Positions 2,009 to 64,000 of a DNA stretch of 64,000 nt are shown here, piece after piece. The first letter of the stretch is position 1; every line of letters begins with the position of its first letter. Under the pieces are notes generated by a model that saw nothing but the letters and a program-made list of their open reading frames with translations, made no database searches and was not told where the DNA came from. Where the stretch lies: IMG/VR virus record IMGVR_UViG_3300025896_000021. The stretch is one strand, 5' to 3'. Source of the stretch: a virus (Duplodnaviria; Heunggongvirae; Uroviricota; Caudoviricetes). The position numbers and the translations under genes were made by a program.

Positions 2009-2311
2009 TCAGAAGAAAGAAAAGAATTCACCGGTCACCGGTACCACCGTAAAGATCCAGCCAGTGTTGTCACCGAAGTTGTAATTGGTTCTACTAGTAG
2101 CATCCCAAACTGCTCCACCAGTAGCGTTACTGTCTTGTATTTTCGTATAGGTTGCGGTAACTGTGCCGCTAGATTTAGCCAAAGTGAACTGTGTGCCGGG
2201 TGAAGAACTTTTCAGTGTTAGCATAGCTCCATCTACTCCGGATATATTAGTATCGGTTATCGTAGTAGTAGTCCCTGCTTCAAAAATAAGGGTAGTTGTA
2301 GATTGTGTCAT
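2009..2311 (-). CDS. 100-aa protein resembling the C-terminal cap of RYWVGG-type beta-helical repeat proteins
   Basis: Intact ORF with GGAATAAG upstream. TLIFEAGTTTT...TLKSSSPGTQFTLAKSSGTV...IQDSNATGGAVW...NTGWIF...FFSFF has the same composition as the upstream giant. Confidence 0.75.
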   Translation of the reverse strand: MTQSTTTLIFEAGTTTTITDTNISGVDGAMLTLKSSSPGTQFTLAKSSGTVTATYTKIQDSNATGGAVWDATSRTNYNFGDNTGWIFTVVPVTGEFFSFF

Positions 2312-2336
2312 GTGCTTATTCCATTATTAATATTAG

Positions 2337-5300
2337 TTACAGTGTTATAGTACCGGAGCTCTTGAAGATGTATAAGATATACAATCCATCATATACTACA
2401 GTGCATCCACCAGTTGCAGCGGCCGGTGGGGAAGTCGTCAGTAATTGACGAATGATGACTATACCCGAACCGCCAGTTCCGCCATATGTGTAACCAGCTG
2501 CTGCGCCACCTGCGCCGCCACCTGTATTTGTTTTGCCATTTCTAACACCGGTCGAATTAGATTGAGTACTGGCTGCAGATCCGGAGCCTTGATAAGTACT
2601 GGATGCACCCACTGCCCCGCCACCTAAACCACCTGCGCCACCGCTACCGTTTGCCATGCCACCGCCTCCGCCAGCAAAGTAAACAGAACTACCAGAAATC
2701 TCTCCTACACCTAGCGTTAGTGCTATGCTAGCACCAATCAATGTAGATGCTATACCAACGCCACCGACACCGCCAAGTTGAGATACACCGTAACCACCTA
2801 CTGCTCCGGCGCCACCTCCGCCGCCGCCAGCCGATGTGCCTCCACCTTCATTACCTGTTCGGCAGTTGCCGCCGTTGTTACCGTATCCACCACTAGCACT
2901 AGTTGGTTGTAAACCTGTGCCGCCTGTGCCCGGTGGGTAGTCTCTACCACCACCACCACCACCACTGCCGCCTGCAGTACCGTTCACCTGGAACGTGCCG
3001 CTTGCGCCACCGCCTAATGCAGTGAGTGAAAAAGTATTATCGGCCGCAGCTACTGTCGAATTAGAACCGTTACTATTGTAGCCACCAGTACCAACTGTCA
3101 CTACTATCGCTGTTTGCGATACTATCACTGATTGAGGAATAGTGTAAGTTGTAAGGACTACTCCGCCACCGCCACCGCCACCGATACCAGAATTTGCGTC
3201 TCCAGCGCCTATTTGGCTACCACCACCACCACCGACTATCATCATATCCACAGTCACCGGTGTATCTACTGGGAACGATCTTTTGTACCCCCAGATAATA
3301 CGAACTGCACCGTCGCCACCGGGCCCGGAATTGCCGCCGAATGTGTAGAGGCCATTGCCACCACCACCGTACAATTTTCCGGATCCACCTGATCCAGGAC
3401 TACCACTAGCACTTGTTATGCCGCTCGAAGCTGCTGAGCCATTTGCACCTAGACCCATAATTCCTACACCACCACCAGAACCGGTACCGTTGCCAACGCT
3501 AGTAGTACCATTTCCGCCACCACCGCCACCATTCTGTCCAGCACCGGCGCTGAGTCCGCTGCTATCGCCACCTTGACCACCGGTACCACTATTGCCGTTG
3601 TATCCTCCAGCACCTCCGGCGCCACCCCAGATGAATGATACCCGGCCGCCAGCACCACCACCGTCTCCGGCCAGAACAGCGCCGCCCGGTACTAGAGTTC
3701 CACTGCAATTGCCCCCAGTGCCGCCACCGGCTCTGACAGTAGTTGTACTTAAAAAGTAACTGTCGCCACCCGAGAAGCCGGTGTTTGAGCTAGATTGATT
3801 AACTTGTGCAGCACCGCCCGCACCGACAACTACGGTGTATGATTGGCCAGGAGTAACCGAAATATTGTTTTTCCAAGCTAGAGCACCGCCACCACCGCCC
3901 ATAGCTCCGCCAGTACTACCTATGCCACCAGACCCGCCGCCGCCGACAGTCACTACACTAACACTAGTTACGTATGCTGGTGCTGTCCAAGTATAAGTAC
4001 CTGGTGTAGTATATGACATTTCACCGATAGGTATCATAGCAGTAACAAATTCAACCATGTCGCTGCTTACTTGTACACTTTCAAAGCTGTTAGAACCTGT
4101 TATTAAAAGAGGGTACTTGCTCTTTTGAACAAGTGTACCATAAGTTCCCCCAGCGCCTGCAAATGTTTTAGTCGCCTGTGCAACCATATTAATTGTACAA
4201 CCGGATGTGTCGAGCCCCGTACCATTTATAACAGACCAATTATTAGTTACTGTAATTGCACTCGCTCCAGTAATAACTCTTGATCCGGTACCAGTAGAGC
4301 TAAAATTGTAACAAGATATATCATATCCGGCTAGATTTAGTGTCCCGGCATTTACTACGATATTAGACATAACAGCTAATGTTTGAGTACCGTCTAATGT
4401 TAGTGTGGCGCCTGCCTTATTCACTCCAATGCCACTTAATACTTTGCTGAATTGACTAGTCCAAGTTTGTGTTCTAGTAAATACCGAAGTCAAACTAGTG
4501 TAAGTGCCACCGGTCGCAAGTGTTAGTGTATCTACATTTAATGTAGTTGGAATTATCTCACTCGTACTACCGGTAAAATCTAATACCCTAAACCAACTAC
4601 CATTACTGATTGTTAGTAGATTTGCACCAGAGGTTATAGATAAATTAGGTGCACTTGTTGCAGAGCCACCTGTTGTACTTCCGAAACTAAATGTTCTTGT
4701 CACATTCATTCCTGCAGTAAATCCACCAGTACCTGTACAAGTGAAGTTAGTAGCATCTGCCATTGATAAAACTTCAGTATCTGCTACAGTAGTTGCTAGT
4801 GTAATGTTATTTGAGCCAAATACAATCGCACGAGCATTATTATTACTTGAAACAACTGATCCAAATGTTACATTGCTACCGCCTAAATCTAATGTACCTG
4901 CAGTCAGTAATAACTTACTTGTCGTTGCATAGGTTTGTGTACCATCTAGAGTAAGAGTTGCATCAACACTATTTACACCTATTCCAGCTAATTGCTTGGC
5001 AAATTGCATTGTCCAAATTTGTGTTCTAGTGAATACAGGTGTTAATCCGGTATATGTACCGCCGGTCGCTAACGTCAATGTATCTACATATAAGGTAGTT
5101 GCTGCTATAGTGCTTGTAGTGCCGGTAACAGCTAATACTTTGAACCAACTACCACTGGTAAGTGTTATTGTGCTTGCACCACTGGTTAGTGATAGATTCA
5201 TTGCATTGAATATAGAACCCCCGGCTGTACTACCAAAAGTAAATGTTCTAGTTACACTCATTGCACTAGTAAATCCACCAGTGCCGGTGTAACTGAAGTT

Positions 5301-8300
5301 AGTAGCATCATCCATTGACAATACAGTAGTTGATGCGGTAGTGCTAGTTAATGCAATATTACCTGTACCAAAAGCTAGTACACGAACATTCGTGTTGCTT
5401 GAACTGAATCCAGCCGTTGTTAGTGTAAAATTGTTTAGATTCAGTTTTCCTAGAGTTAATGAGGTAACTCCTGTTACAGTTAATGCACCACTTAATGTTA
5501 CTATGTCAGGTGAAGATGCTATTAATGGAATAGCTATAATAGTAGAAACATTAGGTGATCCAGTCGTTGATGATGGATCCGCGTAAACGGACATGTAACT
5601 AATAATTACTACACCCGAGCCGCCTGCGCCACCGCTAGTATTTCCGCCACCACCGCCGCCACCTCCGCCGCCGGTGTTAGATGTGCCTGCTGATCCGTTT
5701 TGGAGGTTACCTCCACCTGCTCCGCCGCCGCCATTGCCGCCAGCGCCCGGAGTAGTATTTCCGCCACCACCACCACCGCCAGCATAATATGTTTCTGTAC
5801 CGGCAATAACAGAAGATAGTCCGTCGCCGCCAGAACTAGCGACAGTAGCCACTGCATCAGCGGCTGCAAAGCCTGCACCACCACCACCACCAGAAGAATC
5901 TGCATTTGCCGGGCCGGCTGCTGCTGCTGCACCACCGTTATTACCTTGACCTGCAGTACCGAGTCCGCCTATACGGGTGCCTAGGCCACCTCCACCTCCA
6001 CCACCGGATCCGCCTGCACCACCTGGGACTCGCTGCCCGCCGTAACCTCCACCAATTGCTATACTATCATGAAATGAAGATATTGATCCTGATGTTCCGC
6101 TAATACCAGTGGCTGCAATGCCACCTGATCCGACTGCTATTGAATAACTAGATCCGGGTACTATACTAGCACTTGATAAAATTAGACCGCCGGCACCGCC
6201 GCCGCCCCCGCCACCACCGGCACCAATACCTCCTCCTCCTCCACCACCGCCTGCAGCTACTAAATATTCAACTGTCGGTGGTGCATTAGATGCAGGGAAA
6301 GTTATTGACCCGGAACTATTAAACGTATAAACTTTATATGGAACCAGTACGTCGGGGTTATTAGAATTGATGTTTAGTGCTGCAATAGTTTTACCATTAC
6401 TAGTAATAGTTCCAGTACCAACCATATTTACTGTTAGATTAGTGTATGTTCCGCCAGTTGCTAATATTATAGAATTGACATTAACTGTTGTCACTGCAGG
6501 TGTGCTAGAACTACCAGTAAAATTCAAAGTATTAAACCAACTATTAGTTATGATAGTAGGAATAGCTGTACCACTGTAAATAGATAAATTAGGTGCCTTA
6601 GTTGATGAGCCACCTGCTGTACTACCAAATCTAAATGTTTGTGCTACACTCAATGCACTAGTAAATCCACCAGTACCAGTACAAGTAAAGTTAGTAGCAT
6701 CTGCCATTGACAATACAGCAGTTCCGGCTGCGGCGGCCGTACTTATTGCAATGTTGCCTGATCCAAAATCAATTGCACGAACATTCGTATTACTTGAAAT
6801 AAAACTACTAGTTGACAGTGTGAAATTGTTTAGATTAATTTTTCCAAAAGTTAATGTCGTAGTTCCTGTTACAAACAATGCGCTACTTAACGTTACTATG
6901 TCAGATGTAGTCTGTGTTACTGCTACTAAAGGGACCGCAATAGTATAAACAGCAGGTGATCCAGTCGTTGACGTTGGATCCGCGTAAGTAGCTAGATAAC
7001 GGATACTGACTAGGCCCGATCCACCACCACCACCGAGGCCGGTGCCGCCATTGAATCCCCCGCCCCCGCCGCCACCGCCCTTATTAGCTGTACCGTTGCT
7101 GCCATTAGAATCCGAGCCCCCTGCCCCTCCGCCACCATTTCCGCCAGCGCCGGCCGAAGTACTCTGCGCACCGCCGCCACCGCCACCGGCGTAATAACTA
7201 GATGTTCCGGATATAGAGTTTAATAGACCCACACCGCCTGCGCCGCCAACGCTGCCATTGTCGCCGATGGCTCCCATTCCGCCGCCACCGCCGCCGCGCC
7301 ACGGGCCAGGAGTGCCGCCATCGAAGCCTTGGCCGCCGCCATATCCTTGATTTCCGGCTGCACCTGCTTGATTGCCGTTCTGCGAGCCACCGCCACCGCA
7401 GGCACCAGTAGTTGGGCCGTTGATATCCTGATAGCCACCACCGCCACCGCCGTTTCCTGTAACTCCAGAAAAAGATGATGCAGTTCCGACAGCACCCGCA
7501 CTGTCGGCTATTACGGTAGCGGCTCCGCCGCTACCAACAGTAACCGGGTAACTTATCCCACTAGTTATCGAAGATGTTCCCGCTACTAATCCGCCGGCAC
7601 CGCCACCTCCGCCACCACGCTGGGCGCCGCCGCCTCCCCCGCCTCCCCCGCCAACTACTAGATATTCAACTGTAGGTGGTGCATTAGATGCAGGGAAAGT
7701 TATTGACCCGGAACTATTGAAAGTAACAACTTTATATTGTTCTGTTGTGTTAGGGTTATTAGAGTTGACAGTTAGTGCTCCAATAGTTTTACTATTGCCG
7801 TTGATAGTACCATTACCAACCATATTTACCGTTAGATTGGTATATGTTCCGGTGCCGGGCAGTGTTAAACTGTTGAGATTCAATGTAGCCACATCCGGTG
7901 TGCTAGAACTACCGGTAAAGTTTAAAGTATTAAACCAACTACCGGATATGAATGTTGGTATTGAGGCGCCACTAGTCAATGATAGGTTAGGTGCATTGAC
8001 TGATGTGCCCCCCGCAGTAGATCCAAAATTAAATGTTCTAGCTACACTCATTGCACTAGTAAATCCACCGGTACCAGTGTAGCTAAAATTAGTAGCAGTT
8101 GGCATACTAAGGTTTACTACGGCAGCAGTAGTAGTTGCTAATATAATATTGTTAGTACCAAAAGCAATTGAACGAGTGTCAGTAGTATTTGAAATAAATC
8201 TACCAAATGTTTGATTAACACCACCTAAATTCAATGTACCAGCAACTAAACTAAAACTACCAGTCGCACTGTAAGTTTGTGTTCCATCTAGTGTTAGTGT

Positions 8301-11300
8301 TCCATCAATTAAATTAAAACCAATGCCAGCTAATGTTTTACTGTATTGACTGGTCCATGTTTGTGTTCTAGTGAATAATGGAGTCAATCCAGTGTAAGTG
8401 CCGGCGGTAGCTAATGTCAATGTAGACACGTTTACCGTAGTTGCTGCGGGTGTACAAGTACTACCTGTAAAATTAAGTGCGTTAAACCAGCTACCACTGG
8501 TAATTGTTGGTATTGCAGCACCGCTAGTAATAGATAAGTTTGGTGCGTTACTTACAGAGCCGCCTGTTGTACTGCCGAATGTAAATGTTCTATCTACTGA
8601 CATTGCACTAGTAAATCCACCAGTACCAGTACAAGTAAAGTTAGTAGCATCTGCCATGTCTAAATTCAGCACTGCTGATCCACTAGGGACTGATAAAACA
8701 ATATTGCCGGTACCAAACGCAATTGATCTTGTGTTTGTGTTAGTCGAAATGAAAGCAGCAGTTGTTAATGTATACCCAGCTAGCGCCAGTGTCCCACTAG
8801 TTAACGTGACCGAACAATTCAACACATAGTTTACTGCAAAATTTCCACCCAGTGTAGTGGTGGCCGAATGATTGATAGTTAGCCCGCCTAATGATGCAGT
8901 GCCATTACCTATAATAATGCCACTGCCAACCAGGTTTACAATCAAAGCAGTATAGCTGCCGCCGCCACTGGATAATGTCAGCCCGTTTAAGTTTAATGTA
9001 GTTACACTGGGGGAAAATGCAGTAGTACCAAAATCAAGTTTATTAAACCAGCTACCAGTAGTCAATGTTTGTATAGCGGTACCTGAACCAGTAAATGTCA
9101 AGTTAGGAGCGTTGGCACTAGTGCCACCGGTAGTACCAAAAACAAATGTTCTTTCCCTATCCGCCGGTATTACAAATCCACCGGTGCCAGTGCAGGTAAA
9201 GTTGGTAGCATTGCCAAAGTTAAGAGCTGTTACTAGTGTAGCAGTAGTAGTCAATACAATATTGTTGGTGCCAAATGCAATCAATTCGGCGGTACTGTTG
9301 GCACTAAATGTTCCAATTGAGAAATCATATCCACCTAAATTTAATTTTCCTGCCTGCAATAAAAAGCTGGAAATAGCAGGGAATGTTTGTGTACCATCTA
9401 ATGTAAGCGTACCGCCAGCCAGGTTAAACCCCATGCCACCCAGTTGTTTACCATATTGCATTGACCAAGTTTGTGTTCTAGTAAATCTAGCTACCAAACC
9501 GGTATAATCGCCACCTGTGGCCAATATCAAGGTGTTCACGTACGCCGCTGCTGCAATCGGTGCGCAGGTACTACCAGTAAAGTCTAACTTATTAAACCAA
9601 CTGTTAGTAGTGATAGTTGGTACAGCACTACCACTAGTAATTGCTAGGCTCACTGCATTTGTCTCAGAGCCTCCAGTGGTTCCGAAAGTAAATGTGCGGG
9701 TGATTGATGCCGCAGTGACAAATCCACCAGTACCTGATGTAGTAAAGTTAGTAACAACTGCCATTGACAGAACAGTAGTAGCGACAGTAGTATGTGTCAG
9801 TGTAATATTACCTGTACCAAATTCAATTGAGCGGGCAACGATACCGGTCGAACTGAATATACCAGTACTCAAATTATAGTTATTCAAATTCAATGAGCCA
9901 GCAGTTAATGTATATGTACCATTCACGGTGAGAGCGTAACTCTTACCTAGTGTCACCGTACCTGCATTATGATTAAACGTAGCTACCGGACTTATTGTTC
10001 CACCAAGGTAAGTAAGTGATCCTGAATTTAAGGTAATAGCTGAACTCGGAGTGATGATACCATTATCAAGTACAAAATTTCCAGCAATATTAAACGAAGT
10101 GCAAACAAAAACATTAATGTTAGAGAATGAGCCGCTAGAATAGATGGCAACAGTTCCGGTCAAGTTAAAATTATTGAAGTCAATGTTACCAGTAGTGTAT
10201 GTATGCGTAGTGCAGGTTAGTGCCCCCGCTAATGAAGTAGTTCCTAAATCAGTATGATTTATAACTAATGCTGCTATGCTCTTGCCATTAGGTGTGATTA
10301 TACCATTAGACCGCATGGTTGCTGAAATACCAGTAAATGTGCCGCCACTAGATAACGTTAGGTTATTGACATTTACTACTGTTGCTGCAGGGGTGCAACT
10401 ACTACCAGTGAAGTCAAGAGTATTAAACCAACTATTAGTTGTAATAGACGGTATTGCTGTTCCGCTATTAATTAATAAGTTTGGTGCATTCGCCGTGCTA
10501 GCACCGAGGGTGCTGCCAAATTGATATGTTCTTGCTATAGTAGCATCAGACACAAAGCCTCCGCTGATACTAGTATAACTAAAGTTAGTAGCATCAGCTA
10601 CTGACAGCACTGCGCCCGCAGTAGTAGTGTTCAAAATAATATTAGTATTTTTAAACACAACTGAACGAATACTTGTGCCTGAACTAATGAATGACCCAAT
10701 TGTTAAATCATACCCACCTAAGTCTAACGTACCTGCTATCACTGAGCACACTGAAGTTGCAGTATATGTTTGAGTGCCGTCTAGCGTAACAGTAGTGAAA
10801 AGTCTGTTCACCCCGATACCACCTAACTGTTTACTGTGCTGACTAGTCCAAGTTTGTGTTCTAGTAAAGCAAGGGATCAATCCAGTATAAGTTCCAGTAG
10901 CGTCAAGCAGTAGCGTATCTATATTGACGGTAGTTGCAGCCGGGGTACAAGTACTGCCGGTAAAATCTAATACTTTGAACCAACTGTTAGTTGTAATAGT
11001 TGGTACAGCACTACCACTAGTGATTGCCAAGCTAGGTGCATTGTTAAAGTTAGCACCCAAAGTACTACCAACTGTAAATGTTTTGGTCACATCTGCTGTT
11101 GTTCTAAATCCACCAGTCCCGGTATAGTTGAAATTAGTAGCGTCTGCCATTGACAGTACAGTTTGTGCTGCTGTTGTGTGAGTTAACATAATATTACCCG
11201 TACCGAATAATATAGAACGGGCAATGATACCAGTTGAACTGAATATACCAGTAGACAACGTAAAATCATTCATTGCTAGTGTACCAGCAGTGAACGTGTA

Positions 11301-14300
11301 AGTACTGTTTGGTGCTAAGGTCAAGTCACTAGTCATATTAACAGTACCGCTAGTGTGTGTAAAATTTGTCACCGAAGACAAATCTCCACCAACATAATTA
11401 AATGTACCAGATGCTACAGTAAAAGTAGGAGTATTTATTACGCCGCTAATGAATGAAAATACTCCGGTTGAGATAGTGACACTAGCGCAAGTAATAGTAG
11501 CATCGGTCAACGTTCCACCAGTATAGGACATTGCTCCTGTACTATTTATAGTATAGGTTTGATAATCAATGAATCCATCTAATTGGAAGTAATTTGCACA
11601 TTGTATGTTGCTAGCTAATGTAACTGTACCAAGTGTGTTAACAGTAAATGATCCGATTGTTTTACCGGCAGTATTGATGGTACCAGTACCGATCATATTA
11701 GGTGATAGTGCGGTGTACGTGCCATTAATAGATAACAACAGAGTAGTAAGATTTAATGTAGTTGTACCTGGATTGAATGAAGTAGTGCCAAAATTTAGTG
11801 AGTTAAACCAACTAGCAGTGGTAAGAGTTTGCACTGCTGCACCAGTAGTAAAAGTTAAGTTAGGTGCATTAGCTGTTGTACCGCCAATGGTGTTACCAAA
11901 AGCAAAAGTCCGTGTTATATCTGCTGCTGCTCTAAAGCCGCCGATACCAGTGCAACTAAAATTAGTAGCAGTTGACATATTAAGGTTTACTGCGGCTGCT
12001 GTACTAGTTGCGAGAATAATATCATTGAGACCAAAACTTATTTCACGAATATTTGCGTTACTTGAACTGAATATACCAGTAGTTAAGTTGTAACCGTTTA
12101 AAACTATGTATCCAGCAGTCAATGTATACGTACCGGTAGCAGTGAGCGCATACGCTTTAGAAAAAGTTGCGACGCCTGAAGTATGAATGAATGCCGGTGC
12201 CGGACTTAACGTACCACCGACATATTCAAATGTACCTGACGCTAATATGAAGCTAGTGCTAGGAGTAAGTGTACCGTTGGTAAGAGTGAAGTTACCGTTA
12301 ACAGTAAAAGTAGTGCAAGAAATTATACCAGTATTAGCGTATGTACCAGATGTGTAAGCTATTGCACCTGCGCAGGTTAAATTATATGTACCAAAATCAA
12401 TATCACCTGATGTTTGAGTATATGTTCCTGAAACTGTCAAGGATCCAGTAAAAGTTGTAGTACCAATGTGGTTGACGACTAATACGAACATTGATTTACC
12501 GTTACCGTTAATAGTACCAGTGTCAACTATATTTGCAGTCAAGTTAGCATATGATGCAGCACCACCAAGAGTTAATGATTTAAGATTTAATGTTACGAGT
12601 GTACCAGTAGCAGACCCAGATACAATACAAGTACTACCAGTCAAATCAAGTTTATTAAACCAACTGGTTGAAAAAAACAATATTTCATTAGAACCACTAG
12701 TAATAGACAAATTGGGTGCGTTAGAATCAGTACCACCTGCGGTGCGACCAAAATCAAATCTTCTACCAACTATATCTGCAGCGGCAACAAATCCACCTAT
12801 ACCGGTATATGAGAAGTTAGTAGCATCGGCCATTGACAAACAATTAATATTAGTAACAGTATTTGTTAATACAATGCTACCCGAACCAAATGCAATTGCA
12901 CGAGTGTTAGCATTAGATGAACTAAAGATACCAGTTGTTAATGTAAACCCACCTAAGTCTAGTGTACCACTTGTCAGTGCATAAATACCAGTAGTAGTGA
13001 GGCTATAATCTTTACCAAATATCACATCACCTGATGTATGAGTGAATAGAGGAGTTGGGCCCATCGATCCTAGTGCAGCCAATGTATATGAACCTGAGTT
13101 AATTACAAAACTAATGCTGCAATTTATAGATCCACTGTCAAGTACTAGAGTAGGTCCGTTGAGCGTAAAAGTAGTACAACTAATATTTCCAAAATTAAGT
13201 ATTACTCCACCATTATAATTGATTACCCCCAGTGAGGTAAATGCAAACCCAGCTAAATCTAAAGTAGTGTTTATCAACTGAGTATGAGCATTGACTCCCA
13301 ATGCACTTAGTAGGGTAGTTGTCCCTGTAGTAGGAATAGTAAACGTGTTTACTGACTTACCATTACCGCTGATAGTGCTAGCAGGTCCAAACATATTTGC
13401 AGTTAATGCAAGATATGTACCGCTACTGGATAATATTAACTCATTTACATTTATAATAGCAGGAGCACTTGTGCCAGTGCTACCAGTAAAGTCAAGTTTC
13501 TTAAACCAACTATTGTTTACCGAATCAAATGGAGCACTACCCGATGCTACAAATAAATTAATCGCATTGGAGGTATCGGCGCCGGATGTGCTACCAAAAT
13601 TGAACGATTGGGCTACGCCCATACTACCTTTAAATCCGCCGGTGCCTGTATAAGTGAAGTTGTCAGCAATTGGCATATCTATGCCGGCGGTAGTAGTTAC
13701 TATATAGTTAGTGCCAAAAATTATTGAACGTACCGTATTATAAGACGAAGCAAACGATCCGGTTGTCAAATCATAGCCATTCAAATCTAATGTAGGAGCT
13801 AAAGTGGCGCCAAATGTAGTAGTGCCGACCACAGTAACCGTTCCGACTAAACTTGTAGTACTGTCATGGTTTATAGTTAATGCCGCGATTGATTTACTGT
13901 TACCATTAATAGTACTCATTCCAACCATGTTTATAGTCATGAGAGTGTAGGTGCCATCACCTAAAATTAACGACTGTGTGTTAAAACTTCCAGTTACTCC
14001 GGTGCTACTACCGGCTACCGTACTTGTACTACCGGTATAGTCAACAGTTTTGAAATAACTTCCAGTGTACATCAGAACTTCACTAGCACCACTAGTGATT
14101 GACAAATTGGGTGCATTAGTTAATGTGGCTCCACCAGAACGACCGAAGTCAAATCTTCTAGAAGTTGTCATTGCGCTAGTAAAGGCGCCTGTGCCAGTAT
14201 AAGTAAAGTTAGTAGCAATAGCCATTACTAGAGCACTATTACCTGCAATAGTATTAGTCAATACAATATTAGTAGAACCAAATATTATTGAACGCTCATT

Positions 14301-45490: not shown

Positions 45491-45495
45491 ACTTG

Positions 45496-45503: not shown

Positions 45504-45509
45504 TAACCC

Positions 45510-46880: not shown

Positions 46881-46902
46881 TTTTATTCTTCTTTTAATTA
46901 AG

Positions 46903-46933: not shown

Positions 46934-46947
46934 TGCCATACGTAGTA

Positions 46948-49470: not shown

Positions 49471-49494
49471 GAAAGTTCCCTTTTCTCTTTATTA

Positions 49495-49502
49495 TATTTA
49501 TC
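49495..49502 (-). promoter_or_regulatory. Putative T4-late-like promoter GATAAATA
   Basis: Intergenic, upstream of the RBS of the 840-aa gene. Confidence 0.65.
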
Positions 49503-49505
49503 TGT

Positions 49506-49856: not shown

Positions 49857-49870
49857 ATTATTTCCTTTAT

Positions 49871-55459: not shown

Positions 55460-55693
55460 TTATGTAATTCCTGTGACCTCGTCAAAAACTCCAGAAATTT
55501 TAAGTACACCCGTATTTAGCTGTTGCATAGCCATGCCATTTTCAGGGCCAGTATATTCATCCAAAGTATAAGCAAACACCCCATTAGGGGTGATGCTTAT
55601 GTTGCTTTGACTAATTTCGTTAAACCCTACACTACCAGTAGTAGTAGTGTAGAGTGTGCCGTTGTTGTTTAATCTAGCTGCGACATTAGACAT
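55460..55693 (-). CDS. 77-aa putative connector protein
   Basis: MSNVAARLNNNGTL...LDEYT...MQQ..TG.LKISGVFDEVTGI; paralogous to both ends of the 311-aa protein. Confidence 0.82.
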   Translation of the reverse strand: MSNVAARLNNNGTLYTTTTGSVGFNEISQSNISITPNGVFAYTLDEYTGPENGMAMQQLNTGVLKISGVFDEVTGIT

Positions 55694-55704: not shown

Positions 55705-58700
55705 TTAATTGAAGATGAAGTCTAAGCTATTTGCAGATGAGTTAAATTGAATATACGCCTTACTAGCAGTTCCACCGTTGTTATCAGCAAATCCTACAGA
55801 TTTACCTGCATAGATATTACCAGTTGCTGCGATACCACCTACTACAGTGACTGCACCTGCTGCTGCACTAGTTGCTGCTGCACCGTCTGTTACAGAGATT
55901 GAACTTGCAGCAGTGATGTTATTACCACTGATGTTACCAGATACGTCAAGTGTACCAGTTACGTTAGCGCCAGTTCCTGTGATAGTAAGAATTGTGTTTC
56001 CACCACTTACTAAGATTACATCACCGTTAACAGTTGGGATACTTACATTACTAGTACCATTAGAGATTTTATCTGAGCTAATAGTGCCCCAGCTTAGAAC
56101 GCCTGCCCCATTAGTCTTCAAGTAATCACCTGCGCCGCCGCCAGTCAATGTTACATTACCAACTGCACCTAGATCAGTAGCACCTGATACTATCAAGCTA
56201 GTCAATGTACCAAGTAATGTGATATTGCTTTGAGTAGCTCCGGAAACTTGTGCAGCCAGAGTAGCGTTAGCAACTGTACCTTGAACTTCAGAACCAGTTA
56301 AGAATGTCAATGAAGCACCATTACCACTTACAGAAGCAGCAGAAACTGCACCAGATGCAGTTACATTAACAGCAGTCAATGTATCAGTACCTGTATTGTA
56401 TGATAAGTTCGCACTATCAACTAACAAGCCAGCAGAACCAGCAAGAACGATACGACCAGCAGTGCTTAGGTTACGTGCAGTAACGTTAGCAGCAGTGATG
56501 TATCCAGAAAGATTTGCGTTGACTGTAGACAATACGTTGCCGTCTGCATCGAATGTTAGGCCAATGCTGTCAGTTAGTTCTCCACCAGTTGTAGCAAAAG
56601 TGATACTACCTGCAGTCAAACTAGCAGTCTTCAAGTTACCAGCAGTTACCATACCAGAGATATTAGCTGTACCAGTAACTCCTAATGCAGTACCACTGAA
56701 TGTTAAGTTTGTGCTGTCAACTAATTTACCGCCAGCAGCAGCAAAAGTTACTGAACCCTCAGTTAATGTGTTAGCATAAACATAGGCTGAATTAACAGTA
56801 GTTGCATTAACAGTAGTAGCGTTTGCAGTAGTAGCAGCAACTGTAGTCGTAGACAATGTACCATCAGCAAATGTCAATGCAACAGAACCTGTTAACTCTT
56901 GTCCAGCGCCAGCAAATGTTACTTGACCAGCAGTCAATGAACTATCAACAATATTACCAGCTGTTAATAACCCAGATACATTAGCTGTACCAGTAACTAC
57001 CAATGCATTACCATTGAATGTCAAGTTTGCGCTTGCAGCTAAATCATTTACTACGTTACCATCAACATTACCTGCGTGGAATTGAAGTTGAAATTCAGAA
57101 CCTGAAGCAGTTTGGAAGTCGATTGGTGTACCGTCTGCATATTGATATACATCAGACTTGAATGAACCTGCAGTTACAGCACCAGTTACAGCTAAACTAG
57201 TTAGTGTTCCGACTGAAGTAACGTTAGGTTGTGCAGCAGTTGTAAGTGTACCTGTTAATAAAGTAGCAGAGACTAAGCTAGCACCGGTGATGTTACCAGT
57301 TACGCTTACATTACCTGCTGTTACATTACCGGTACCTAAATCTAAGCTGTCACCAGTAGCTGCACCAATATTTGGAGTAGTCAATATTGCGCCTGCGATG
57401 ATAGCTAAGTTGCCACCAGATACAGTCAAGGTGACCTCGTCGGTCAATGCACTGAATACGCCGCCGTTTAATGCAAGACCATGAGTTGCTGAAAGTTGGC
57501 CAGCGCCAGAGAACTGTGTCCAAGCGATTGGATCAGTGCCTACTGTGATAGTTCCGTTCGTAGAAACAACCCATCCTGAATCAGATTGTGCAGTACCTTC
57601 TTCAACGAAAGTAAATGAGCCAGCAGTAAGTTCGCCCGTTGCATTAGCGTCAACAGCACGAGTCCATGAACCACCGTCAACTACGACATAGATACCGTTT
57701 TGGCTAGCAGTTGTTTGATCTTTAACAAGTACACGATCACCTGCAGCTAATAAAACACCGTCAACTGTTTGCGTACCACTTAGTGTAATGTTCACCATTG
57801 TAGCTGCACGTACAGATTCTTTAATATCTAGACCTTGTGCTGCACCGTCAACATAACCTTTTGTAGCAGCGTCAGTTGCATTAACTGGAGTTGCTAAGTT
57901 AGTAATTGTACCTGCACTAGCATCAATAACACCTGAAAAAGCGTTTAAAGTAATTCCACCTGCCACTGTTGAAAGTGTCAATGAAGTTGCACCAGCAACG
58001 TTTGGAGTGTTAACTGTACCTGTTACATTTACGTCACCCGCAGTAGATAAACTACCACCAGATACGTCACCAGTAGCGACAACTGTACCAGCTGTTGATA
58101 AGTTACCAACAGTAGCAGTATCAGATACGCTAGCAGTTCCTGTAATAGTAGTTACACCAGCAGCTAATGTACCAACTGATGTTGCACCAGCAGATAAATT
58201 ACCAACTGTAGTATTACCAGTAACACCTAGTGTAGTTGTAATAGTTGCGCTGTCTAGTGTAGAAGCACCAGCCGTAAACGTAGTAACTGTAGTAGCATTT
58301 GCTGTCAAAACAGCTAATGTAGTAGCGCCAACGACACCCAATGTACCACCAACGTTAGCGTTAGTAGTTACGCTTAAATTAGGAGCAGTTAAAGTTTCAG
58401 TAGCATAAGTAAACCCGCTAGCACTAGTTAATTTGCTACCATCAGCAAACACAACTTGAGTAGTTGACAAGTTATTAGCAGTTACATTAGCACCAGTGAT
58501 AGCACCAGATGCAATAACTGTTACAGCAGATATTGAATTAGAAGCTACAATATCAGCTACCGACAACGTGTTAGATAAATTAATTCCACCATTACCAGTT
58601 GTAGTAGTTGAAATCGTTTGCGTACCGATTCTGATACTGCTACCAGACAACCATAAGTCTCTCCATGCTGCGCCTTCGCCACCTAGATCATACGTTATGT

Positions 58701-60090
58701 CTGCTGATGGGAGCAAGTTACCAGTTACTACACCGGAAATTGCTAAGTCACCAATATCTGCTGTACCAGCAGTAGTGATGTTACCACCAGTTACTAAACC
58801 AGTTACAGTTGCATCACCACCAGTTACTAAACTACCTGCAGTAAGAGTACTTGTAATGTTTGCTGTACCAGTTGCAACAATATTTTTGATATTCAATGCA
58901 CTAGATGAGCCAGTTCCATCAATATTTGCACCAGTCGTAAATCCACCAGCAGCGTTTGCAACACCGGTAATAAACGCGCCTAGCGTTACGTTAAGATTTG
59001 CAGTAGTGCTGATATTACCAGATGCAGTAACAGTAACAGTTGTTACGTCACCAGCAGTTGTCAAGTTACCACCAGATACATTACCAGTTGCAGCTACAAC
59101 ACCAGCAGTTGTCAAGTTACCACCAGATACATTACCAGTTGCAGCTACAACACCAGCAGTTGTCAAGTTACCACCAGATACATTACCTGTTACACTAGCA
59201 GTAGTAGTTACTTCTAATGAACCTACGTTAGCAAGGCCTGTTGCCGTAACTGTTCCACCAGTAGACAAGTTGCCACCAGTGATTGTTCCTGTTGCAGTTA
59301 GTGCATTTGATGCCTTGTTGAATGTAAATCCAGCAGTTGCATTTTGAGCACCATCATCATTGAACTGAACTTGAGTATTATCACCCTTAGCAGCAATATT
59401 ACCTGCAAAGTTACCATAGATGTTTCCACCAACGTGCAAGTTAGCAGTAATACTAGCACCGCCGGCGACTTTAAGTGCACCAGTTGATGTTGAAGTTGCT
59501 TCAGTAGCGTCACTGAAAGTTACAACACCGCTAGCAGTAACAGTAGCTAGATTAGCTGTACCACTGACGCTTACGCCAGCTAGAATACCAACACTAGTGA
59601 TGTTCGCTTGTGCGTTGTTAACAACATTACCTGCAAATGCAGCCATGTTAGCACTAGCTACTGTACCAGTTACTTCTTCACCAGTTAGATTAGTAAGAGT
59701 ATCACCGTTACCAATGAAGTGAGCAGCATGTACATTACCGTAGTTAGTAATTTCAAGAACATCACCTGTATTCGTGACAGATTTTGCTAATACAAATTCC
59801 CCGGCAGCAGTGTGCCAGCCCATGAATCCATCAACTGCTGCTGAGTTAGCAGTGTCAAACGTATGAAGCAATAAACCACGTTCTTTACCATCATTAATCG
59901 TTAGTGCCGCACCATTGGCGCCGCCGCCTAATTCGATTAACGGATCAACTAATGTTGTTGTAGTTGTGTCAACTGTTGTTGTAGTACCTTTAATTACCAA
60001 GTTACCACGAATTGTTACGTCTGTTACATCAAGTGCGTCATTAACTGATAATGCACCGTAAACTACCGTACCGCCTTTTAATTTTGCCAT
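55705..60090 (-). CDS. 1461-aa long fibre protein
   Basis: AAAGGAAA RBS; MAKLKGGTVVYG start; DAATKGYVD followed by KESVRAAT..NITLSGTQTVDGV.L.AGDRVLVKDQ...QNGIY (a known phage tail-fibre-related domain); terminal YIQFNSSANSLDFIFN. Confidence 0.9.
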   Translation of the reverse strand: MAKLKGGTVVYGALSVNDALDVTDVTIRGNLVIKGTTTTVDTTTTTLVDPLIELGGGANGAALTINDGKERGLLLHTFDTANSAAVDGFMGWHTAAGEFVLAKSVTNTGDVLEITNYGNVHAAHFIGNGDTLTNLTGEEVTGTVASANMAAFAGNVVNNAQANITSVGILAGVSVSGTANLATVTASGVVTFSDATEATSTSTGALKVAGGASITANLHVGGNIYGNFAGNIAAKGDNTQVQFNDDGAQNATAGFTFNKASNALTATGTITGGNLSTGGTVTATGLANVGSLEVTTTASVTGNVSGGNLTTAGVVAATGNVSGGNLTTAGVVAATGNVSGGNLTTAGDVTTVTVTASGNISTTANLNVTLGAFITGVANAAGGFTTGANIDGTGSSSALNIKNIVATGTANITSTLTAGSLVTGGDATVTGLVTGGNITTAGTADIGDLAISGVVTGNLLPSADITYDLGGEGAAWRDLWLSGSSIRIGTQTISTTTTGNGGINLSNTLSVADIVASNSISAVTVIASGAITGANVTANNLSTTQVVFADGSKLTSASGFTYATETLTAPNLSVTTNANVGGTLGVVGATTLAVLTANATTVTTFTAGASTLDSATITTTLGVTGNTTVGNLSAGATSVGTLAAGVTTITGTASVSDTATVGNLSTAGTVVATGDVSGGSLSTAGDVNVTGTVNTPNVAGATSLTLSTVAGGITLNAFSGVIDASAGTITNLATPVNATDAATKGYVDGAAQGLDIKESVRAATMVNITLSGTQTVDGVLLAAGDRVLVKDQTTASQNGIYVVVDGGSWTRAVDANATGELTAGSFTFVEEGTAQSDSGWVVSTNGTITVGTDPIAWTQFSGAGQLSATHGLALNGGVFSALTDEVTLTVSGGNLAIIAGAILTTPNIGAATGDSLDLGTGNVTAGNVSVTGNITGASLVSATLLTGTLTTAAQPNVTSVGTLTSLAVTGAVTAGSFKSDVYQYADGTPIDFQTASGSEFQLQFHAGNVDGNVVNDLAASANLTFNGNALVVTGTANVSGLLTAGNIVDSSLTAGQVTFAGAGQELTGSVALTFADGTLSTTTVAATTANATTVNATTVNSAYVYANTLTEGSVTFAAAGGKLVDSTNLTFSGTALGVTGTANISGMVTAGNLKTASLTAGSITFATTGGELTDSIGLTFDADGNVLSTVNANLSGYITAANVTARNLSTAGRIVLAGSAGLLVDSANLSYNTGTDTLTAVNVTASGAVSAASVSGNGASLTFLTGSEVQGTVANATLAAQVSGATQSNITLLGTLTSLIVSGATDLGAVGNVTLTGGGAGDYLKTNGAGVLSWGTISSDKISNGTSNVSIPTVNGDVILVSGGNTILTITGTGANVTGTLDVSGNISGNNITAASSISVTDGAAATSAAAGAVTVVGGIAATGNIYAGKSVGFADNNGGTASKAYIQFNSSANSLDFIFN
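59050..59187. repeat. Perfect 51-bp tandem repeat, 2.7 copies (GNVSGGNLTTAGVVAAT)
   Basis: accagcagttgtcaagttaccaccagatacattaccagttgcagctacaac at 59050 and 59101, with a partial third copy at 59152. Confidence 0.95.
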
Positions 60091-60132: not shown

Positions 60133-61068
60133 TTACGCACTTATACCGGTATACTCATCAAACTCATTTGCAACTAATAGTGATCCAGATTTTCTCTGTT
60201 TCATCTTACCGTTGTAATTAGTTGATAATGGGGTGAGAGCATCATACGTTGCGCCACCGACGTTAGTGACAGACTTACTGGAACCAGAAGTATCTGTTGT
60301 TAAAGCACCTGTATCTGCCATAGTTAATAGCAATACAGTAGCTGAACTTGGGATAGCAGCAATATTAACGCTGCTAGATTGTGTAGCACTGAATGGCTTG
60401 ATAGGAGTACTAAAGTTTCCAGTGTACACTGCTAGCCCTTTTACTACACGAAAATTTGTAACGTTTCCAGTTAGGAATCCGTCAGTTACCCCTGCTGATC
60501 CGCTTTGACCAGTAACACTTGCGTTGACTTCTCCGCCAATTGCTAGTGCTCTAGATGTAACTGAAGTATACGGAGAACTATCTGTAATTACTGAAGTTCC
60601 GTTAACATATACTTTCACATGAGTCGAATCTGTTTTTACTAGTGCAACGTGAAACCATTGATTTTGAGGAACTACATTAGATCCGCTACCAACTGGAGCA
60701 TTGGTACCATTCCAATAATAAAGAGTTGATCCAAGCATCTCAATGTTGTCACCATCTGGGAAAGACCAAAGACGTTGATACGATGTTGAAGTTACAAAGA
60801 ACCATCCTTCAATCGTAAAAGCTGCACTTCCGAATTGGAAATCGCCGCTACCGACTACTGACAAGTATTGACTTGTACCGTCTAATTTAACCGAGCCGCC
60901 GGATGGTTGACCACCTGGTAAAGTAACTTCATCAAATTCATCAGCGAATATATGATCCACTGTGACTTTATGCCCTAAAGGAACAGAACCATCTACGCCG
61001 TATTCATCGAATGAACCCGCAGTTAATAAGGTGCCGTCGTTTTTTAATCTTGCGCCAACTGTTGCCAT
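60133..61068 (-). CDS. 311-aa putative connector protein carrying an inserted LamG/ConA-like domain
   Basis: MATVGARLKNDGTL...FDEVT-[LDGTSQYL..FTIEGWF..QWFHVALV..VYVNG..NFRVVKG.AVYT]-MKQ..SG.LLV..EFDEYTGI. Confidence 0.88.
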   Translation of the reverse strand: MATVGARLKNDGTLLTAGSFDEYGVDGSVPLGHKVTVDHIFADEFDEVTLPGGQPSGGSVKLDGTSQYLSVVGSGDFQFGSAAFTIEGWFFVTSTSYQRLWSFPDGDNIEMLGSTLYYWNGTNAPVGSGSNVVPQNQWFHVALVKTDSTHVKVYVNGTSVITDSSPYTSVTSRALAIGGEVNASVTGQSGSAGVTDGFLTGNVTNFRVVKGLAVYTGNFSTPIKPFSATQSSSVNIAAIPSSATVLLLTMADTGALTTDTSGSSKSVTNVGGATYDALTPLSTNYNGKMKQRKSGSLLVANEFDEYTGISA

Positions 61069-61074: not shown

Positions 61075-61599
61075 TTATCCATTAAATTTAAAATCTATAC
61101 TATTGGCAGTGTTGTTAAAGTCAATTATTCCCTTAGGAGATGTTCCTCCACCGGTCAAATTGATATTTCCACCCACTGTCAAATCTTTCTGAATCCCTAC
61201 TCCACCCTCGGTGACAAAACTGCCCGTGATAGTAGATGTAGAATCTGTATTACTATTTATGATAAGTTGATTATTAATAGCTACAGTGTTAATATTTGCA
61301 CTGTTTAGAAACACGTTTCCGGCTATAATTCCGGATGCGTTTGCTGCAATCACTTGCCCATTTATATCAATATTACCCGTAAGATAGAAATCTTTGTATC
61401 TACTAGCTGAATTTGCTAAAGATAATACTCCGTTCCCGTTCGGGATCAAATTTGAAGTTAGTAACGCTACTGATAAGTTTGCCGTTTTTACCGTGTCCGT
61501 AGCATTGACGTTGGCGACATTAGCGTTACCGCTAGCCGCATCTAATGTTATATTTCCAGTGGTTAACCCACCTTTAACATTAAAATTCTTTGTTGTCAT
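61075..61599 (-). CDS. 174-aa short fibre segment
   Basis: MTTKNFNVKGGL start; NLIP....LSL...SRYKDFYL; TGSFVTEGGVGI; terminal IIDFNNTANSIDFKFN. Confidence 0.85.
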   Translation of the reverse strand: MTTKNFNVKGGLTTGNITLDAASGNANVANVNATDTVKTANLSVALLTSNLIPNGNGVLSLANSASRYKDFYLTGNIDINGQVIAANASGIIAGNVFLNSANINTVAINNQLIINSNTDSTSTITGSFVTEGGVGIQKDLTVGGNINLTGGGTSPKGIIDFNNTANSIDFKFNG

Positions 61600-61616: not shown

Positions 61617-63335
61617 TTAATCAGTCACGTAAGTGCCTACAAGATTCACCACAGTGTTTGCTGCGATTCCTGATGCATACAACTTAACATTTCCACTAGC
61701 AATGTTACTAGTGACAGTAATAATATCTTCATTTAAGGTGCTGATTGCTCCGTAAACTGTGATATAACTATCGCTGCCATCATGTATTAACAAGACTTCT
61801 AGTGATTCGTACCCAAGGTCATTGCTAGCTTTGATAATGTATTTAGCAGTTCTAAAAGATGCCACCGTGAAGCTGTCGATCACTGTGTTGGTAGTGACTA
61901 TCACGCTAGTAGCAGAGCTACTAATAATAGATGAGGTTACTAGATTAGTTGAAGTAATGTTACCCGTAGCAATCGAATCACTTGCAATCGTTGTATTACC
62001 AGTAGTTAATCCACTCGTTGTAATTGATGTATTACCGGTAGTTAATCCAGTTGTACTTACCGTAGTGTTGCCCGTTGTAACTCCATTACTACTGATGCTA
62101 GTATTACCGGTTGACAATCCATTAGCTGTAATAGACGTGTTTCCAGTAGTGAGACCAGTTGTGGTAATTGATGTATTACCTGTAGTAAGGCCGGTAGTAC
62201 TTACAGTAGTATTACCAGTAGTAACACCTGCATTGCTGATACTTGTATTACCAGTAGTGACTGTAGTGGTTGTAACTGTATTTCCAGTCACACTTGTATT
62301 TCCAGTAGTCAATCCAGATGAACTAACAGTTGTGTTACCAGTAGTTACTCCGGTTGTGCTGATGCTTGTATTGCCAGTTGTCAACCCAGTGTCTGTAATA
62401 CTTGTATTGCCAGTGGTCACCGTTGTTGTTGTAACTGTACTTCCCGTAACCGTTGTATTACCAGTGGATATTCCATTACTAGTGATACTTGTATTACCAG
62501 TACTCAATCCATTAGCTGTAATCGATGTATTACCAGTAGTCAGGCCTGAGCTACTGATACTTGTATTACCGGTTGTTACTGTCGTTGTCGTAACTGTACT
62601 TCCTGTTACAGTAGTATTACCAGTCGTAAGTCCATCGCTGCTAATTGAAGTATTACCAGTAGTTACTCCTGAACTGCTTACACTAGTATTACCAGTACTC
62701 AATCCATTCGCTGTAATCGATGTATTACCAGTAGTCAATCCGTCAGTACTGACTGTCGTATTACCAGTAGTTACTCCATTACTACTGATGCTTGTATTAC
62801 CAGTTGATAATCCATTAGCTGTAATCGATGTATTACCAGTAGTCAAACCAGTAGTGCTTACTGTAGTTGCACCAGTAGTAACTGAATTACCAGTAACTGA
62901 GGTTGTACCAGTAGATAATCCATTTGCCGTGACAGTTGTATTGCCAGCAGTTAAACCAGTAGTACTAACTGAGGTTGTGCCAGTAGTAAGACCGGTATCA
63001 CTGATACTAGTATTACCAGTTGTTACCGTAGTAGTCGTTACTGTATTTCCGGTTACGCTAGTGTTACCAGTAGTAAGTCCGGTTGTGCTAACTGTGGTAT
63101 TACCAGTAGTAACGCCCGTTGTAGTGACACTTGTATTACCAGTAGTAACACCTGATGTAGTGACTGATGTATTACCGGTAGTAACGCCTGTACTAGTGAT
63201 ACTAGTGTTTCCTACTGCTACGGTAGCTAGCCCAAGATTCTTCCAGCCTACTCCGGTCCATTGGTAGTTATAACCGTTGTATGTAACGATTGTACCTAAT
63301 GGTGCGGTCTTCGGTAATGCTGTAACTGTTGCCAT
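61617..63335 (-). CDS. 572-aa fibre protein with TTGNT repeats and a C-terminal beta-sandwich
   Basis: About 420 aa of TTGNT repeats; terminal IDSF...FRTAKYII...ESLEVLLIHDG..YITVYG domain of a type seen in large-myovirus virion proteins. Confidence 0.88.
   Translation of the reverse strand: MATVTALPKTAPLGTIVTYNGYNYQWTGVGWKNLGLATVAVGNTSITSTGVTTGNTSVTTSGVTTGNTSVTTTGVTTGNTTVSTTGLTTGNTSVTGNTVTTTTVTTGNTSISDTGLTTGTTSVSTTGLTAGNTTVTANGLSTGTTSVTGNSVTTGATTVSTTGLTTGNTSITANGLSTGNTSISSNGVTTGNTTVSTDGLTTGNTSITANGLSTGNTSVSSSGVTTGNTSISSDGLTTGNTTVTGSTVTTTTVTTGNTSISSSGLTTGNTSITANGLSTGNTSITSNGISTGNTTVTGSTVTTTTVTTGNTSITDTGLTTGNTSISTTGVTTGNTTVSSSGLTTGNTSVTGNTVTTTTVTTGNTSISNAGVTTGNTTVSTTGLTTGNTSITTTGLTTGNTSITANGLSTGNTSISSNGVTTGNTTVSTTGLTTGNTSITTSGLTTGNTTIASDSIATGNITSTNLVTSSIISSSATSVIVTTNTVIDSFTVASFRTAKYIIKASNDLGYESLEVLLIHDGSDSYITVYGAISTLNEDIITVTSNIASGNVKLYASGIAANTVVNLVGTYVTD
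61960..63215 (-). repeat. Coding tandem repeat TTGNT (12/17 aa units)
   Basis: Seen in translation of the 572-aa gene; synonymous positions vary between units. Confidence 0.95.
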
Positions 63336-63349: not shown

Positions 63350-63353
63350 CTTG

Positions 63354-63998
63354 TTACGCCGAAGGCGGTGTTATGTTGAACCAGTAATCGCCACCTGCGG
63401 GATTCGTGTCCGGATCATATGCGCCCGAGCCATCTAAGCTAGTCCACATCATTGGGGTTGATTTTGAATTAGGAGAAGTTACTGTAGGTGATATGTCAGA
63501 CCCGTCATTAGTAACTAGCATCCAAATAGAACCGTACGGGATTTCTACACCGGGTATAAATCCAAATGTCACTGGATCTTGATTAGGTGCCATATTCATG
63601 TACCCCATTCCATATTCGGTGAAGTCATATAGTGTAGTAGTATAGTAATATCTACCTTTCCATTCTGTCTTTCCATCGCCAGTTGAAGACAATACTTCAA
63701 ATTTGTTTCCAAAATTTCCGTTTGCAGATAATCCATTACCTAATACAATGTTACCAGTAACATTCAAATTCAGCAAGTTACCCACTGATGTAATGTTTGG
63801 CTGCGCTGCTGTTGTTAATGTACCTGTAAAGAAGTTAGCTGTTACTAAGTTACCTAAATTAGCACTAGTAGCAGTTACGTTTCCGGTTACTGTTAGATTT
63901 ACTAATGACCCGAGTGAAGTTATATTTGGTTGTGCAGAAGCCGATACAGTAACTGCTACATTTGCATTAGAAATAGTACCAACTAAGTTCTTATTAAA
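63354..63998 (-). CDS. Fibre segment, 5'-partial (enters from outside the window)
   Basis: The frame stays open from 63785 to the window edge (FNKNLVG...QPNITSLG...QPNITSVG), so the track's 143-aa call is a fragment. C-terminus parallels the 423-aa protein. Confidence 0.87.
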   Translation of the reverse strand, partial: FNKNLVGTISNANVAVTVSASAQPNITSLGSLVNLTVTGNVTATSANLGNLVTANFFTGTLTTAAQPNITSVGNLLNLNVTGNIVLGNGLSANGNFGNKFEVLSSTGDGKTEWKGRYYYTTTLYDFTEYGMGYMNMAPNQDPVTFGFIPGVEIPYGSIWMLVTNDGSDISPTVTSPNSKSTPMMWTSLDGSGAYDPDTNPAGGDYWFNITPPSA

Positions 63999-64000
63999 GT

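Follow-up and report, generated by a model that had tools for sequence, protein, structure and literature searches.

A putative three-part joint with a triplicated adaptor module recurs in a collinear fibre-gene chain of an uncultured jumbo phage

The 64,000-nucleotide (nt) stretch of Caudoviricetes DNA analysed here, hereafter the window (IMG/VR record IMGVR_UViG_3300025896_000021), carries a long run of fibre-like genes in which particular protein ends tend to be followed by particular protein starts, and it raises the question of whether gene order states which fibre protein docks on which. The real genes of the window all lie on the minus strand and are numbered p01 to p28 in transcription order along it. 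A preliminary description, made from the sequence, had proposed that at least 26 genes over 62 kb form such a code and wire a branched, tree-like appendage. According to our analysis, the proposal has a real core: about nine collinear genes form a chain in which a portable three-part fibre joint, built around a new adaptor module, is seen twice. The genes p02 to p09 look like consecutive segments of one fibre and the joint behaves as a cognate set, while the full code and the branching were not supported.

The joint corresponds to the first motif set of the preliminary description, set (a), which was indeed seen twice: an end called C1 (..N..ANS(L/I)DFxFN), an adaptor gene (p04 or p06) and a start called N2 (MAxL(K/R)xGTx(I/V)YG). 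C1 ends of the form ..NxxANS(I/L)DFxFN are found on p03 and p05, adaptor starts of the form Mxx(V)(G/A)ARLxNxGTL on p04 and p06, and N2 starts on p05 (MAKLKGGTVVYG) and p07 (MALLRSGTRIYG). The genes and parts concerned are as follows, all on the minus strand (aa, amino acids; HMM, hidden Markov model).

61075..61599, minus: p03, short fibre segment of 174 aa, with N3 start MTTKNFNVKGGL and C1 tail ..NNTANSIDFKFNG
61078-61302, minus: C1 tail region of p03
60133..61068, minus: p04, first adaptor ("knee 1"), 311 aa, triple-FDEVT module split by a lectin-like domain
60907-61068, minus: repeats 1-2 of p04 (aa 1-54); the module HMM matches both protein ends
60523-60882, minus: Laminin_G_3 domain (PF13385) of p04 (aa 63-182), Pfam E 4e-10
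60139-60216, minus: repeat 3 of p04 (aa 285-310)
55705..60090, minus: p05, long middle fibre segment of 1461 aa
59956-60090, minus: N2 head of p05
55708-55932, minus: C1 tail of p05, ..FNSSANSLDFIFN
55460..55693, minus: p06, minimal adaptor ("knee 2"), 77 aa, three tandem repeats of ~24 aa
54167..55438, minus: p07, fibre segment between adaptor p06 and p08
55304-55438, minus: N2 head of p07
54170-54439, minus: PP-type C-terminal domain of p07

The two adaptors are alike at both ends, and in p04 the Laminin_G_3 domain intervenes, with 40.4 bits against a gathering cut-off of 27.6, so that it belongs to this family. The adaptor p06, visible only with a minimum open reading frame (ORF) length of 25 aa, had no match in Pfam, PHROG or PDB. 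Its aligned homologues consist of three tandem repeats of ~24 aa, each ending (F/L)(D/N)E(V/I/Y)(T/S); in p06 itself the repeats end with FNE, LDE and FDE followed by (I/Y/V)(S/T). Three such repeats between a C1-ended and an N2-headed neighbour were thus found twice, as a full module in p06 and as a split module in p04. Each of p05, p06 and p07 has a ribosome-binding site and a start codon of its own; in view of these sites, the stop codons and the spacers of 11 and 21 nt, read-through to a single long p05-p06-p07 polypeptide was rejected.

Close relatives were collected with p06 as a query, which gave 17 IMG/VR loci at 58-83% identity. ORFs were called, their first and last 28 residues were clustered without supervision, and neighbours were then tabulated in the p06-related loci. 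The chain from a p02-like gene through p03, p04, p05 and p06 to p07 was found in 17/17 of these relatives, p03 being kept in 17/17. The following pairs were obtained, with counts that measure conserved synteny rather than independent events because the loci are related by descent.

C1 end followed by adaptor start (N1): 36/36
Adaptor end (C2) followed by N2: 35/35
C3 (with the related C11 and C13) followed by N3: 26/28 N3 starts; C3 alone, 18/18
C5 followed by N5: 15/15
..SGDYITSWSFS followed by ..DYLWKK (pair not in the window): 13/13

The expected coupling of ends to starts across related genomes was therefore recovered for set (a) and for some of the single pairs, and not for the set (c) discussed below. 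Among the single pairs, p02 to p03 (18/18) and p08 to p09 (15/15) hold. The pair formed by a p12-type end and an SLK-type start (MANYHSLK/MATNLKSVK) holds in one direction: the start has that end before it in 9/9 cases, and the end leads onward to that start in 9/14. The p21 to p22 pair did not recur. Besides, each of four related genome fragments carries exactly one split and one stand-alone module gene. The pair absent from the window is a two-part junction, in which an end ..SGDY(I/V)(T/S)SWSF(S/A) overlaps, in ATGA fashion, a gene starting MA(I/L)S(D/T)..(V/L)D(Y/F)LWKK; it was observed at L007:35-4083 and L007:10255-16553 and also in L002, L004-L009 and L011-L014, and one genome bears it at two different positions with differing outer halves.

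Beyond close relatives, the p06 profile matched 159 protein clusters at E≤0.001 among 1.84 billion representatives searched. Three forms of the module are seen: a stand-alone protein of 69-100 aa, the N-terminal part of larger proteins (260-2510 aa), and the C-terminal part of unrelated proteins (180-2000 aa) of the MATYYWVGG or glycine-rich kind. Full modules form 7 clusters at 55% identity, plus split forms. Distant gene contexts were taken from the contigs encoding distant profile hits and from 19 loci, 18 of them true, that matched a degenerate DNA pattern covering two FDEVT motifs. A C1 end before the module carrier and an N2 start after it were found in about ten distinct uncultured lineages, with fibre bodies that differ completely (123-2395 aa upstream and 345 to >1284 aa downstream, several with an S74-type chaperone end). 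Where neighbours are visible at these distant loci, the upstream gene ends Y.YN(S/A)..S(L/I)D(T/F).F(G/N) and the downstream gene starts MA(K/N)L(Q/L/K)(S/D/G)GT.(I/V)(Y/F)G. Among 478 ORFs, an N2 start lacking an upstream module gene was found in 0/376, and a C1 end was followed by a module gene in 51/53 cases, a 57-aa ORF lying between them in both exceptions. Nine starts downstream of modules were missed by the strict regular expression; eight are one-residue variants of N2 and one is a spurious hit (L029). None of the inspected hits joined the module to a C1-ended or N2-headed fibre in one protein, as a 1:3 stoichiometry would lead one to expect. When 50,697 phage records were searched by tblastn with p06, the p07 head and a LamG-type module protein as queries, no module was retrieved and all matches were to the LamG parts. 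The module profile found nothing in five isolate genomes (Vibrio phage 2.275.O, Phosso, PA5oct, S-CAM1 and T4), among them the nearest by head protein, while four related metagenomic genomes used as controls were positive. The N2 head was also considered as a fourth copy of the module repeat and rejected (hhalign probability 2%).

This distribution bears on whether the termini could be recombination linkers or relics of block duplication, held together by DNA linkage in the absence of protein docking. The recurrences within the window are indeed paralogous blocks (p01/p02 versus p07/p08, and p03-p04-p05N versus p05C-p06-p07N), and the fibre genes of T-even phages are mosaics (PMC3157838). However, the termini stay conserved at the protein level although module identity falls to 29-46%, and the flanking rule is kept in L028, L034 and L036 although 230-390 residues of another domain part the module from its C1 or N2 neighbour. 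Two further results given below, the separation of the cognate pair from controls in complex prediction and the physical continuity implied by the p07|p08 fission, also speak against pure linkage, which we hold to be decidedly improbable.

Contact between the partners was then modelled. Three copies of the C-terminal 75 aa of p05 with one copy of p06 reached a median score of 0.79, versus 0.01 for the best of three controls; in the calibration, which is only rough for a 3:1 multi-copy job with user-made alignments, the score mark was reached by 58/80 solved complexes and 2/110 mismatched pairs. At least 59% of contacts agreed between runs, with a partner predicted local distance difference test (pLDDT) score of at least 46. 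In tail copies 1, 2 and 3, residues 67-75 are predicted to contact p06 residues 5-10, 33-35 and 56-59, respectively, i.e., the first strand of repeats 1, 2 and 3, one repeat per chain. The confident contacts listed include none from the FDE(V/I)T halves of the repeats. Neither side of the interface has a sequence relative in PDB, so that the score is unlikely to come from a memorised structure. In this model, a single p06 is predicted to cap the p05 trimer at a 1:3 ratio.

The same geometry could be that of an assembly chaperone. T4 gp38 and the Tfa proteins of lambda and Mu are chaperones that nucleate or register fibre trimers, and p04 and p06 might likewise bind the C-terminal strands, nucleate or register the trimer and possibly leave. 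Like gp38 and Tfa, p06 is a small protein whose gene comes immediately after a fibre gene, and its predicted contacts are with the very end of the C-terminus of each of the three fibre chains; it also has no confident fold alone. Unlike these chaperones, the module is always followed by a fibre gene with a specific N-terminal head and is often part of a large structural protein. A chaperone role would leave unexplained the constant N2 head on the next gene in about ten lineages with different fibre bodies, the fusion of the module to structural-type proteins (LamG proteins matching phrog_8510, "virion structural protein", and glycine-rich giants) and the presence of exactly two module genes per genome, at both C1/N2 boundaries. 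We therefore regard it as unlikely, and p04 and p06 are treated below as putative structural joints.

The remaining segments of the chain extend it on both sides.

63354..63998, minus: p01, partial, cut by the window end; fibre segment with PP-type C-terminal domain (..DYWFNITPPSA)
61617..63335, minus: p02, fibre segment; aromatic start, 24 TTGNT-type repeats, end ..NLVGTYVTD (C3)
51706..54153, minus: p08, fibre segment; 22 TTGNT-type repeats, end ..WGFTNFSQVTTVLTTS (C5)
53884-54153, minus: aromatic start of p08
50733..51704, minus: p09, probable distal segment; N5 start MAALIFPSPTQLKN..

The second motif set, set (b), involves these genes: ends ..W..DG...PP on p01 and p07 are followed by short aromatic starts on p02 and p08, the two genes that carry TTGNT-type repeats (24 and 22; no other gene is enriched). 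The motifs are present as described, and the set is supported in part. However, p02 matches the N-terminal 560 aa of p08 at 50% identity and p01 matches p07 at 35% over 217 aa, so the recurrence of set (b) in the window represents a single block copy. The position of p01 holds proteins of ~1000 aa in relatives. As for p07 and p08, 12/16 relatives have one protein of 546-911 aa that spans p07 residues 1-~305 and p08 residues ~385-815. In the window and in L002, this protein is split by a cassette in which the PP-type C-terminal domain and a stop are followed by a start and an aromatic head with TTGNT repeats, and a cassette of the same kind joins p01 to p02. From this comparison, the p07|p08 boundary is the fission of one polypeptide, and the single-protein homologue provides Rosetta-stone evidence for p07 and p08 lying in one fibre. 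A PP-type end before a MAFP/aromatic start was found in two more contexts (L024 and L048), and searches for distant relatives returned 0 loci for the PP-type end and 2 for the aromatic start. In p09 of relatives, the N5 start is conserved while the C-terminal part varies, N5 proteins measuring 284-859 aa with at least four C-terminal end types.

Taken together, it is reasonably probable that the products of p02 to p09, and probably that of p01, follow one another as segments of a single virion fibre with two joints, in each of which a triple-FDEVT adaptor caps the upstream trimer and holds the N2 heads of the next. By analogy with the T4 long tail fibre, the segments would be ordered from proximal (N-terminal) to distal (C-terminal) as the genes are. 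Each of the two junctions would be a three-part joint of C1 tail, adaptor and N2 head. The last ~9 residues (..NS(L/I)DFxF) of each chain of the upstream trimer would pair by beta-strand addition with one repeat of the adaptor, which is p06 alone or p04 with its lectin-like LamG domain looped out. The adaptor would in turn hold the N2 heads (MAxLKxGTxIYG) of the next trimer, the three heads possibly being received by the FDE(V/I)T halves of the repeats. As an internal pseudo-trimer, it would solve the 1:3 symmetry mismatch. The p07|p08 boundary would be a different, two-part junction (PP-type end, aromatic start), inserted into a polypeptide that most relatives have in one piece. The rest of the 62 kb comprises further fibres, glycine-rich proteins and accessory genes, whose attachment would not be encoded by neighbour order.

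Several points weigh against this arrangement. Because the relatives share ancestry, the raw counts make the support look stronger than it is, and in L024 and L025 the 57-aa ORF stands between the C1-ended gene and the module carrier. In the simplest form, C1 tail, module and N2 head adjoin one another in the DNA, and linkage alone helps hold them together. On the prediction side, besides the rough calibration, one of three runs was weak (0.44, partner pLDDT 46), and p06 alone folds poorly (pLDDT 63, predicted template modelling score 0.27), which makes it unusable for a fold search. The aromatic start is also found behind fibres ending in an S74-type chaperone, so that junction (b) is plausible and not exclusive. 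Finally, the clade is uncultured, and in one relative the fibre chain starts next to the head genes; the fibre may be head-attached.

The closest precedent, which the preliminary description did not name, is the collinear T4 fibre gp34-gp35-gp36-gp37 with its monomeric knee. Genes 34, 35, 36 and 37 follow the physical order of the fibre, and gp35 is a single-copy knee between trimeric parts (PMC3004832). As proposed here, trimeric segments stand end to end with gene order running from proximal to distal, and gp35 bulges sideways at the knee as the LamG domain of p04 would. In contrast with T4, the present fibre would have two knees instead of one, and unlike gp35, the adaptor can be as small as 77 aa, has an internal triple repeat and is portable, since other proteins elsewhere carry it as a fusion. 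Neither sequence nor profile searches revealed significant similarity between p04 or p06 and gp35, or between the C1, N2 and N3 termini and gp34, gp36 and gp37 (blastp, and HMM against T4 gp34-gp37). This is illustrated by a score of -0.8 bits for the N2 profile against the gp36 N-terminus, the module finding nothing in gp35. Membership of the T4 knee family was rejected on this absence of homology to gp34-gp37, and the relation is best described as a functional analogy.

Branched complexes are the other point of comparison, and the premise of the preliminary description that they hold only a few proteins is outdated: the long fibres of RaK2 are made of nine proteins from consecutive genes, gp526-gp534 (PMC10253068), and phiKp24 has hyperbranched fibres (PMC9700779). 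As with TSP1-4 of CBA120, RaK2 and phiKp24 (PMC10253068, PMC9700779), many fibre proteins with conserved N-terminal assembly parts are encoded by consecutive genes of a jumbo myovirus. However, those complexes branch from one organiser protein through XD domains, whereas the arrangement supported here is a linear chain. No T4 gp9/gp10-like (XD) branching domain was detected by Pfam in the window proteins, which thus fall outside this class. The tips also differ, being LamG and glycine-rich domains in this phage, with no depolymerase family matched by Pfam or PHROG. In the dual receptor-binding proteins of Klebsiella podophages (KP32, K11 and KP34; PMC13352976, PMC6872550), one fibre protein docks through a short conserved peptide at its terminus onto a domain of a second, in a system that is likewise modular and exchangeable; that docking is two-part, trimer on trimer, with no separate adaptor, and the sequences are unrelated to those described here.

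Whether the wiring extends to the rest of the region depends on the following genes.

19583..50731, minus: p10-p22, other fibre-like and accessory genes; wiring by gene order unsupported
2009..18695, minus: p25 and p26, giant repeat protein with four Gly_rich_2 domains, plus p26

The first group contains MxxxKI-start fibres (p12, p14, p19-p21), Gly_rich_2 proteins (p10, p13, p18, p20), a cassette p14-p17, the small p11 and p22, a homologue of a virion protein. These genes supply the third motif set, set (c), in which glycine-rich FT[GA]xG domains were proposed as sockets for MxxxK(I/L) plugs. The motifs exist: Gly_rich_2 domains with the end (S/A)SG(S/T)IT(F/L) are found in p10, p13, p18, p20 and p25, all five belonging to the Pfam family (PF21722), and MxxxK(I/L) starts in p12, p14, p19, p20 and p21. 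The pairing is unspecific, with direct adjacency in only 1/5 cases in the window (p13 to p14). Indeed, 7 different start types follow the glycine-rich end and 7 different end types precede the MxxxKI start in the 17 related loci, which leaves set (c) with no pairing rule, and in L011-L013 MxxxKI fibres lie directly behind a p09-like gene with no glycine-rich gene between. That some 26 genes over 62 kb make up one branched appendage, wired by gene order and including these sockets and plugs, draws on facts that we share: nearly all genes are fibre-like, lectin-like or glycine-rich and on one strand, the joint of set (a) and several neighbour pairs are conserved, and related jumbo phages build fibres of at least nine proteins from consecutive genes (PMC10253068, PMC9700779). 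Against it stand the promiscuity of set (c), the arrangement in L011-L013, the lack of recurrence of the p21 to p22 pair and the absence from all window proteins of a gp10-like branching domain by Pfam, which leaves a tree-like architecture unsupported. Such an appendage is accordingly very improbable. The figure of at least 26 was right as a gene count and wrong as a coupled set: pairing holds only for the chain of about nine genes.

Several observations were made on these other genes. The small p11 (49506-49901, minus; phrog_7759, start MSHFAKVENG..) precedes an MxxxKI-start fibre in 6/6 loci, and it is a better candidate for a fibre-specific helper than the glycine-rich genes. The cassette at 39834-45490 (minus) comprises p14 (MxxxKI-start fibre, end ..DLSIKLKYSY), p15 (103 aa), p16 (279 aa) and p17 (479 aa); it recurs in L003, L015, L016 and L018, and p16 and p17, which match no family, may be distal adhesins or assembly factors. 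Six Laminin_G_3 copies (322 bits) were found in p20. At L021:13069-16387 and L023:11887-14508, fibres with hydrophobic tails (..AIAMAIVFGF, ..GYNLVFGG) are followed by proteins of 119-123 aa starting MA(N/A)PN(I/L); p21 has a similar tail (..FAIAMSIAMGM), but its next gene is p22. The giant p25 (2337-18695, minus) is an uninterrupted ORF of 5452 aa with no tandem repeats at the DNA level; no Pfam family matches the first ~2700 aa, and the four Gly_rich_2 domains lie in the second half. Proteins of the p25 type elsewhere (start MATYYWVGG.., ..NTGW.F near the end) carry a C-terminal triple-FDEVT module, whereas p25 and p26 do not, and p26 (2009-2311, minus) ends like the segment that precedes their module (..GDNTGWIFTVVP).

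The genome setting identifies the window as the fibre region of an uncultured jumbo myovirus of ~350 kb. In relative G002 (L020:8922-14875), the portal, prohead protease, scaffold-like protein and major head protein genes are directly followed by the fibre chain, with 3-4 tandem N3-headed genes ahead of the p02-like gene. The major head protein of this relative shares 65-67% identity with its counterparts in Vibrio phage 2.275.O (349 kb), Sinorhizobium phage Phosso and Pseudomonas phage PA5oct; the assignment follows from this likeness and from the head-gene setting. The genome size derives from CheckV completeness values of 24-63% for IMG/VR relatives that are fragments of 83-223 kb. In the window itself, p28 is NrdA, with ~64% identity to Xanthomonas phages of ~200 kb, and p22 shares 48% identity with a virion structural protein of cyanophage S-CAM1, located just upstream of gp13 in that phage. 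Megablast of 20 kb against isolate phages gave no match. The GC content reaches 53% at 36000-40000, compared with ~41% elsewhere, with a strongly negative GC skew; this rise overlaps the glycine-rich p18 (five Gly_rich_2 stretches) and thus reflects codon composition and not foreign DNA. The T4 late-promoter core TATAAATA was seen once in the whole window versus 7.8 expected and, being so scarce, is unusable for an operon map; the late promoters of this phage probably have a motif differing from that of T4.

What the locus encodes is thus narrower than a 62-kb code, most of which is unsupported, and this negative result is equally useful. Ever since the first description of the T4 knee, it has been a puzzle of fibre structure how a single-copy protein fits between two trimeric halves, and an internal pseudo-trimer offering one repeat per chain is a concrete, testable solution to it. 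For uncultured jumbo phages, an annotation rule follows, in which a C1 end, a module gene and an N2 start in succession denote one jointed fibre. The joint consists of tails of ~10 residues, a 77-aa adaptor and a 12-residue head; as it is small and is kept between fibre bodies of very different kinds, it could lend itself, as a natural connector, to the engineering of modular fibres. Tentatively, and with somewhat less assurance than for the fibre itself, the triple-FDEVT proteins may constitute an undescribed family of monomeric, internally triplicated couplers. Each repeat would supply a strand to one chain of a trimeric fibre end, one molecule would connect two trimers or attach an accessory protein at their joint, and uncultured jumbo phages would thereby have a universal plug-and-play connector for swapping fibre segments.

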